Source: a virus. From it: a stretch of DNA of 64,000 nt. The notes under the pieces are model-generated. The model did no database searches. It was not told where the DNA came from and saw only the letters and a program-made list of their open reading frames with translations. Made by a program: the position numbers and the translations under genes. Positions 59,757-59,947 of this stretch are shown in pieces. The stretch lies in the IMG/VR virus record IMGVR_UViG_3300030339_000025, one strand, 5' to 3'. Every line of letters begins with the position of its first letter. Positions within the stretch are counted from its first letter, which is position 1.

Positions 59757-59947
59757 CAATGGTAGGACTCGAACCTACGACCCATCAGTATTTTCTTACT
59801 CCATTGCTTATTATGCATCATCCACAATGTTTTAGTTTCAACCTCTACATATTCATAAATTTTATATCCTTTGCAACGTATATTTATTTACTTCAATGTT
59901 CCACTTTAAATAGTGGCGCTCTAATCCAACTGAGCTACATCGGCATC
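59757..59947 (-). tRNA. tRNA-like gene interrupted by a ~110-nt intervening sequence
   Basis: Minus-strand 5' half GCCGATG-TA-GCTCAGTTGGATTAGAGC-G-CCACT-ATTTAA-AGTGG (acceptor, D-arm, anticodon arm). 3' half GTAGG-TTCGAGT-CCTAC-CATTGGT (T-arm plus complementary acceptor strand with two G-U pairs). The halves are separated by ~110 nt of AT-rich sequence. Confidence 0.45.

Follow-up and report, generated by a model that had tools for sequence, protein, structure and literature searches.

The 64,000-nucleotide (nt) viral DNA of IMG/VR record IMGVR_UViG_3300030339_000025, referred to below as the window, carries on its minus strand an interrupted gene related to transfer RNA (tRNA). The gene spans 191 nt (59754..59944) from G1 to the discriminator base U73, with no encoded CCA, and is split by a 117-nt insert (59784..59900) located between nt 43 and the variable (V) loop, that is, at the position of the variable arm. 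The explanation favoured here, held with about even confidence, is that the locus specifies an unspliced RNA of ~190 nt derived from a phage tRNA-Lys(UUU), in which the insert would be an add-on domain at the variable arm and which would serve as a decoy or scaffold rather than in translation. Two features are decisive in setting the gene beyond chance, namely the exact identity of parts of it to real tRNAs and its recurrence in an independent lineage with compensatory changes in the stems. Should the RNA be made and remain unspliced, nature would be using the variable-arm site of tRNA to display a large functional RNA, which has so far been seen only in the engineered V-Spinach tRNA.

Anatomy and detection of the tRNA-like gene

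Read on the minus strand, the acceptor stem is formed by GCCGATG (59938..59944, with G1 at 59944) and CATTGGT (59755..59761, with U72 at 59755), followed by the discriminator T, U73, at 59754. Its pairs are, in order, G.U, C-G, C-G, G.U, A-U, U-A, and G-C. A TA spacer leads to the D-arm GCTC-AGTTGGATTA-GAGC (59918..59935), and a single G separates the latter from the anticodon arm CCACT-ATTTAA-AGTGG (59901..59916), which consists of a 5-bp stem and a 6-nt loop. Beyond the insert come the V loop GGGTC (59779..59783), corresponding to nt 44-48 of a class I tRNA, and the T-arm GTAGG-TTCGAGT-CCTAC (59762..59778). The initial annotation had thus rightly recognized a tRNA-type gene in two halves, with an acceptor stem of seven pairs including two G.U, a D-arm, a T-arm, and a 5' half closing its own anticodon-like hairpin with a 6-nt loop, but the gene lies on the minus strand, and the long separation that it put at about 110 nt counts 117. 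The limits of the insert were set by the intact anticodon arm on one side and, on the other, by the block of V loop and T-arm GGGTCGTAGGTTCGAGTCCTAC, which is found in uninterrupted tRNAs; with the insert removed, the exon junction would read …AAAGTGG|GGGTCGTAGG…. All four tRNA arms are present with their conserved loop residues, and without the insert the sequence is drawn by ARAGORN as a full cloverleaf.

Five nt upstream of G1, the sequence TATCTTTG (59949..59956, minus strand) matches TAnnTTTG, the Bacteroidota -7 promoter consensus. In the homologous locus L034, described below, its counterpart TATATTTG stands at the same place, though the upstream flank is only 66% identical. The match is weak evidence for a promoter, and the motif is not enriched within the window (127 occurrences against 138 expected).

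No contiguous cloverleaf is detected at the family threshold (RF00005 or ARAGORN): ARAGORN with default settings reports 0 tRNA genes in the whole window, and Rfam at the gathering threshold gives 0 matches there. With introns allowed, ARAGORN does call one gene at the expected locus, c[59753,59944], and types it as tRNA-Leu(taa) with a 113-nt intron. The 5' half of L034 alone reaches 27.3 bits (E=0.0025) with the Rfam tRNA model, the cutoff being 29. Because standard annotation misses or mistypes such genes in this way, phage tRNA repertoires and suppressor tRNA calls may be distorted.

Complementarity of the stems is not significant by itself, since a loose scan for split cloverleaves fires, with at least one match each, in 34 of 100 shuffled windows of this 25% GC DNA. 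The identity to real tRNAs is of another kind. The 18-nt D-arm GCTCAGTTGGATTAGAGC and the 22-nt block of V loop and T-arm GGGTCGTAGGTTCGAGTCCTAC co-occur exactly in 16 uninterrupted IMG/VR tRNA genes, all of them tRNA-Arg(TCT), and in these relatives the same V loop GGGTC directly precedes the T-arm.

Conservation in a second lineage

The gene is identical in the metagenome contigs L001, L002, L005, and L006, and the copy in L004 differs by a single A-to-G polymorphism, which turns the pair U6-A67 into U.G, the pair also present there in L034. Contigs bearing the element come from the ENA assemblies ERZ27248700, ERZ27249138, ERZ27249838, and ERZ27249843, from JGI 3300028738 and 3300029983, and from the Logan run ERR14847235. 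The 6-nt anticodon loop recurs in contigs of six samples, so that an assembly error is excluded.

A homolog from a distinct lineage and another metagenome (L034:3599-3789) was reached via an 83%-identical homolog of the neighbouring phosphoesterase; it is 82% identical to the window over 270 nt and contains the same insert. The best conserved stretch of the locus is the opening 66 nt of the insert, at 95.5% identity between the two, compared with 66.7% for the last 51 nt of the insert. The 5' and 3' exons are 89% and 81% identical, the coding sequences of the GIY-YIG endonuclease and the phosphoesterase 88% and 86%, and the flanks 66% (upstream 100 nt) and 54% (downstream 100 nt). Nine stem pairs differ between the window and L034, and all nine still pair. 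In five of them both partners have been replaced (the anticodon stem has one such pair, the T-stem and the insert hairpin H3 two each), and the other four are single wobble-compatible changes; by a rough estimate, such an outcome would have a chance of ~1e-4 without structural constraint. The anticodon arm of L034 reads CCACA-CTTTTAA-TGTGG, with the pair 31-39 switched from T-A to A-T, and its T-arm reads ACAGG...CCTGT, with two fully compensated pairs. In H3, C-G has become G-C and A-U has become U-A, each on both sides, and one U-A has become U.G.

Searches for more copies ended with these two lineages: four IMG/VR pattern scans returned tandem tRNA pairs or nothing, blastn against INPHARED found none, and JGI metagenomes and GTDB genomes gave none. 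An nhmmer profile run over 1.47 Mb of fetched loci matched only loci of the window type and of the L034 type, and a protein search with the adjacent 62-aa open reading frame (ORF) returned only that ORF itself. Among more distant homologs of the phosphoesterase, the element was not found in the contigs with DNA to inspect. One population variant, L003 (positions 1-2700, compared with window 60019-62609), has an identical tRNA-like gene and identical downstream genes, but upstream the RCC1 gene is replaced by a wholly different set of small genes; since the upstream gene set differs completely, the tRNA-like gene lies at a recombination boundary.

Insertion site, anticodon identity, and translation

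The sequence CTGAT upstream of the V loop cannot pair with CCACT, whereas the AGTGG of the hairpin pairs with it perfectly. Because the anticodon arm is complete and covarying, the insert is placed after nt 43, at the variable-arm site: AGTGG is nt 39-43 and is followed by the insert and then by GGGTC, so that an extra arm stands between the anticodon stem and nt 46-48, as in class II tRNAs. When the insert is deleted in silico, ARAGORN calls L034 a canonical tRNA-Lys(ttt) and gives the window a cloverleaf labelled tRNA-???, with an unreadable 2-nt anticodon. The L034 loop CUUUUAA has 7 nt and a readable UUU triplet, and since it belongs to the homolog, the window loop AUUUAA is read as the Lys (UUU) loop minus one base. 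The reading of UAA or UUA proposed by the initial annotation does not survive this comparison, and a suppressor with the anticodon UUA is likewise rejected, the loop being a shortened CUUUUAA. Normal decoding is unlikely in the window lineage because the anticodon loop has lost one base while the rest of the gene has been maintained, and the function of the window copy is probably not translation.

One alternative is that the gene is a working tRNA-Lys(UUU) that stays unspliced on the ribosome, the giant variable arm being an accessory, for example a shield against nucleases or a recruiter of phage factors, and the window copy being a recent variant that has lost function or decodes differently. 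L034, with its canonical Lys anticodon arm and its regular cloverleaf once the insert is ignored, speaks for it, and an AT-rich phage would presumably gain from an extra tRNA-Lys(UUU) for AAA codons. In the window lineage, across all six samples, the loop nevertheless offers no assignable triplet in an otherwise intact gene. The acceptor end is also atypical, with U73, G1.U72, and G4.U69, none of which is usual for tRNA-Lys, where position 73 is A. The engineered V-Spinach tRNA (183 nt) cuts both ways: it is charged with only a 2.7-fold loss, binds EF-Tu, and suppresses in vivo, but it entered the A site 18-fold more slowly (PMC5397188). Taken together, a translating tRNA is considered unlikely, though it is the alternative that best survives the evidence.

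Structure of the insert and the possibility of an intron

RNAalifold and single-sequence minimum free energy (MFE) folds concur on the same predicted arrangement of the insert, all on the minus strand. An AU-rich hairpin, H1 (59847..59899), with the apical loop GUUGCAAA, falls within the 95.5%-conserved 66-nt block and is present in the single-sequence MFE folds of both homologs; taken alone, it has z = -0.16 relative to shuffles. It would be followed by a tentative mini-hairpin, H2 (GGU-UGAA-ACU, 59834..59843), which is closed by G.U in the window and by G-C in L034, and by a moderately supported RNAalifold hairpin, H3 (CAUUGU...GCAAUG, 59802..59829), with GAUGCAU in its loop. A poorly conserved A/U-rich linker (59784..59801), for which consistent pairing is not predicted, leads to the V loop. 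This fold is tentative and draws on a few compatible substitutions. A palindrome centred on UGCA occurs in both apical loops and could mediate a loop-loop contact.

It could also be imagined that the insert is an intron of a new kind at 43/44, cut by a small ribozyme or an endonuclease, with the ends healed and sealed by the phage RNA ligase and phosphoesterase to give a 74-nt tRNA-Lys. Removal of the insert does yield a perfect tRNA-Lys in L034, the conserved 66-nt block could be a catalytic core, and an RNA ligase, a metallophosphoesterase, and a nucleotidyltransferase are all encoded within 6 kb of the gene. However, no Rfam family of introns or self-cleaving ribozymes matched a 900-nt slice around the gene, either at the gathering threshold or at E<=10, where the only matches were at chance level or were restricted to the T-arm (those to tmRNA, transfer-messenger RNA, and to YrlA). 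The negative result is meaningful because the same tool detected group I introns (in L060 and L074), GOLLD, and tmRNA in related loci. The group I intron suggested by the initial annotation finds no support, as Intron_gpI is among the families unmatched even at E<=10 and the insert lies elsewhere than the anticodon loop, to which every known bacterial tRNA intron, whether of group I or of group II, is confined (33/34, 34/35, 36/37, etc.) (PMC13011429). With its 117 nt, the insert is moreover far below the size of group I or group II introns, the former being ~200 nt or longer, with a core that Rfam detects. The bulge-helix-bulge intron also considered in the initial annotation fares no better: by-eye inspection of the consensus and MFE folds showed no such motif and no conserved pairing across the two junctions, and the site is 43/44 rather than 37/38. 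The genomic context points, moreover, to a phage of bacteria, and bacteria are not known to possess a bulge-helix-bulge endonuclease. Finally, a spliced product of the window copy would keep the defective 6-nt loop. A novel intron is thus still less probable than a translating tRNA.

Several other identities of the insert were examined and rejected. Hammerhead, HDV-like (hepatitis delta virus), twister, pistol, and hatchet ribozymes are unmatched in Rfam at E<=10, and a search by hand for the hammerhead core (CUGANGA...GAAA...GUC) gave a motif in which A9 is G and stem I is missing, and which is not conserved in L034. A resemblance to CRISPR repeats (GTTG...GAAAC), prompted by a chance-level match to CRISPR-DR36 (E=8.8), was discarded as arrays are absent; the CRISPR-like block pattern gave no arrays and only chance coding matches in 185,579 species genomes, and nothing relevant in JGI metagenomes. 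A mobile element, such as a miniature inverted-repeat transposable element, was rejected, the insert being single-copy in the window and neither terminal repeats nor a target duplication being seen. A coding insert was rejected likewise, a conserved ORF being absent in every frame. The 87-aa ORF at window 59759-60022 on the plus strand is an antisense reading of the tRNA-like gene that is interrupted in L034, and hence an artefact. As to tmRNA, ARAGORN does not call one, and with the Rfam tmRNA model only an 18-nt match within the T-arm is obtained, scoring 8 bits.

Maintenance versus decay

The gene might instead be a dead tRNA-Lys that a chance insertion broke and that is now in decay, with the 1-nt deletion in the anticodon loop as a sign of decay. 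The 6-nt loop, the failure of standard tRNA finders and of Rfam to call the gene, and an insert that folds no better than shuffled sequence would all fit such a history. Decay is nonetheless improbable in view of the second lineage, in which neighbouring genes have diverged by 14% and flanking non-coding DNA to 54-66% identity over the same time: there the insert and both halves have been kept, every changed stem pair still pairs, five of the nine by double changes, and part of the insert outdoes the adjacent protein-coding genes in conservation. The simple disruption of a tRNA by a small insertion, another suggestion of the initial annotation, is hard to reconcile with this pattern, and judged from the sequence comparison the insert is not junk.

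Hardly credible is the remaining alternative, a tRNA-Leu(UAA) with a 113-nt intron at 37/38 (or 34/35) or an ochre suppressor with the anticodon UUA, which has in its favour the ARAGORN intron-mode call and an equivalent placement of the intron after U34 and ending in G, like the group I site of cyanobacterial tRNA-Leu, but which needs a C.C mismatch in the anticodon stem and two bases between D-stem and anticodon stem where the proximal hairpin is perfect and covarying, lacks any group I signal, has a body of class I, where tRNA-Leu is of class II (Arg tRNAs share the D-arm, V loop, and T-arm), and is contradicted by the homolog, for which ARAGORN with introns allowed places the "intron" elsewhere and calls tRNA-Lys(ttt).

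A proposed non-translational RNA built on tRNA-Lys

Under the favoured explanation, that of an unspliced tRNA-like RNA with a decoy or scaffold role, the tRNA core (acceptor stem, D-arm, anticodon arm, and T-arm) would fold normally, and the add-on domain would exit from it at the site of the long variable arm of class II tRNAs, which is solvent-exposed and tolerant of large additions. The RNA would be transcribed from its own promoter and cleaved by RNase P at G1, and an RNase Z-type activity together with CCA addition, the latter proposed because no CCA is encoded, would finish the 3' end after U73. The tRNA body would provide processing signals, stability, and likeness to tRNA-Lys, while the add-on domain, chiefly its first 66 nt with H1 and H2, would be under the strongest selection and carry the specific function. 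The most likely role, by analogy, would be that of a tRNA-Lys mimic, decoy, or scaffold in the conflict between phage and host over tRNA-targeting defences. tRNA-Lys(UUU) is a classic target of anticodon nucleases such as PrrC. Derived from this tRNA and located beside genes of the RNA-repair type and a SegB-like gene, the element would be a candidate RNA-based counter-defence open to testing. A statistical association links SegB homologs with tRNA genes, and they amplify tRNA loci of anti-defence function (PMC13096335).

A number of points weigh against this explanation. Only two lineages are known, so that the covariation statistics are thin, and the best conserved part of the insert hardly varies and hence cannot display covariation. 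Instead of RNA function, the conservation of the 66-nt block could also have its origin in gene conversion over a short tract or in a role at the DNA level. The fold energies of the insert are no better than those of shuffles (z = -0.75 and -0.95), its helices are AU-rich, and L034 can form an alternative, longer hairpin in the H3 region. The case for a decoy or anti-defence role is made only from gene neighbourhood and analogy. Lastly, the perfect Lys anticodon loop of the L034 copy would allow a translational role there, whether spliced or unspliced.

A broader claim is possible but doubtful, namely that this is the first tRNA found in nature whose variable arm bears a large (>100 nt) functional RNA domain of conserved sequence, be it a translation-competent 'decorated' tRNA-Lys or a phage RNA of a new, tRNA-embedded class that would neutralise a defence directed at tRNA-Lys.

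Comparison with known tRNA-like RNAs

The closest counterpart is the V-Spinach tRNA (Masuda et al., NAR 2017; PMC5397188), which likewise has a structured RNA of ~100 nt in the variable loop and a similar total length (183 nt versus 191 nt). In E. coli, the RNA with the aptamer in the V loop is stable, undergoes charging, and is active in translation, while insertions in the D- and T-loops are unstable (PMC5397188). It is, however, man-made, and is said to exceed the length of natural tRNAs, whereas the domain described here is natural and conserved, and in the window copy the anticodon loop is defective.

Class II tRNAs (Leu, Ser, bacterial Tyr, and Sec) share with the element the exit point of an extra helix between the anticodon stem and nt 46-48. 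Their natural long arms are single hairpins of ~10-24 nt and isotype-specific. The element, by contrast, has 117 nt with 2-3 predicted hairpins on a class I body, and combines a Lys anticodon arm with an Arg-like D-arm, V loop, and T-arm, so that it falls outside the Leu/Ser/Tyr/Sec identities.

Among phage RNAs, the stable RNAs C and D of T4 (species 1 and 2) come to mind, whose roles are unknown (PMC3014915). As read in this analysis, the T4 region comprises tRNA-Arg, the tRNA-like RNAs C and D, and segB, and is thus a tRNA region beside a GIY-YIG Seg gene; the element resembles it in having a tRNA-like end of acceptor stem and T-arm and a Seg-type neighbour, a GIY-YIG gene with NUMOD3 located 1.1 kb away. 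T4 RNA C has a T-arm and an acceptor-like stem at its end, but neither D-arm nor anticodon arm, whereas the element keeps a full cloverleaf. Side-by-side reading, with no alignment run, showed no sequence similarity to RNA C or D, and the likeness is therefore best regarded as an analogy, not as membership. If made and left unspliced, the RNA of the element would add a new type to these phage tRNA-like RNAs, a small group of which little is understood; RNAs C and D have had no known role for 50 years.

Introns of group I and of group II in bacterial and phage tRNAs resemble the insert in that they interrupt the gene and defeat standard tRNA finders, but group I introns differ from it in size, site, and their Rfam-detectable core, as set out above. 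Like the element, tmRNA and YrlA, a bacterial RNA resembling Y RNA, fuse a tRNA-like module to a larger functional RNA. In the window, their models find nothing beyond the T-arm (E = 0.74 and 0.79), and the element has no tag reading frame but does have a D-arm and an anticodon arm.

The phosphoesterase alignment was used to fetch 80 IMG/VR loci, and 10 of these have, at the equivalent position, a last group of comparable genes, named 'family B'. These genes lie on jumbo-phage contigs (L049:619-745, L060:2196-2319, L062:2244-2367, L063:2230-2358, L064:1559-1688, L066:561-691, L067/L068:2233-2363, L074:1606-1728, and L095 about 2260-2380) and, like the element, precede the homologous phosphoesterase gene by a few hundred bases, on the same strand, with canonical acceptor, D-, and T-arms. 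They differ from it in having a conserved 50-63-nt domain of unrelated sequence (motif AATTTCYG...GGCTA...GTTACT) that lies inside the anticodon stem or replaces it. Their Rfam tRNA scores are 41-56 bits, ARAGORN assigns them inconsistent isotypes, and one subtype has no anticodon loop at all. If the broader claim made above is true, the element and the 'family B' genes would point to a wider unannotated set of tRNA-scaffolded phage RNAs.

Related loci contain further RNAs. The phosphoesterase homologs of related jumbo phages lie in RNA islands with GOLLD (L049:2240-2638 and L099:617-1019), tmRNA (L049, L062, L063, L064, and L099), group I introns (L060:4151-4365 and L074:4172-4386), and tRNA or tRNA-like genes. 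In L046 and L047, a gene for a CCA-adding enzyme stands beside the phosphoesterase homolog, with a tRNA cluster ~4 kb upstream; L048 has the enzyme gene only. A scan for split tRNAs also found, at L014:1876-2155, a tRNA-like gene interrupted by ~205 nt after U34 of a CUU|CUAA loop, which ARAGORN by default misses; a tRNA-Arg(UCU) containing a group I intron is its probable identity.

Genomic neighbourhood and host

Downstream of the tRNA-like gene and on the same strand follow the 62-aa membrane ORF, the metallophosphoesterase (58598-59332), the SegB-like GIY-YIG/NUMOD3 endonuclease (57961-58605), the nucleotidyltransferase (55456-56067), and the RNA ligase (53250-53924). A gene set resembling those of RNA repair (window 53250-59332, minus strand) thus stands beside the tRNA-like gene. 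Directly 3' of the latter lies a structured element of ~120 nt (59632..59751, minus strand), with a 15-bp closing stem, a multi-branched fold, and then a U-run (MFE -30.8 kcal/mol, z = -3.42, 0 of 200 shuffles as stable). This element is not conserved in L034, the downstream 100 nt being the 54%-identical flank mentioned above; on its predicted fold it could be a terminator or a second stable RNA like T4 RNAs C and D. In L034, a stretch of ~500 nt (L034:3790-4294), ORF-free and GC-richer, separates the homologous tRNA-like gene from the small membrane ORF; it has no Rfam match, and its folding is not significantly better than that of shuffles (z = -1.1).

The context is T4-like, with T4_Y16D and Phage_30_3 domains and PHROG families of homing endonuclease, RNA ligase, and phosphoesterase, and relatives of the phosphoesterase lie in viral contigs of 45-335 kb beside tmRNA and GOLLD. 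The gene content suggests that the source is a phage of bacteria, whose host probably belongs to the Bacteroidota. The window also encodes (12975-16250, minus strand) a 1091-aa protein resembling TonB-dependent receptors, with CarboxypepD_reg, Plug, and beta-barrel domains; its gene lies in a local island of 34% GC within the 25% GC contig and hints at a Bacteroidota host, and genes for nucleotide-sugar enzymes and glycosyltransferases stand beside it (4249-7697 and 16925-18199). Elsewhere in the window (30782-33193, minus strand), an 803-aa protein combines a shoulder domain of the major vault protein (PF11978, E = 3e-27) with repeat domains (PF17795), and near it are encoded a VWA protein (37648-38283), an ankyrin-repeat protein (43413-44108), and the 774-aa RCC1-repeat protein (60285-62609).

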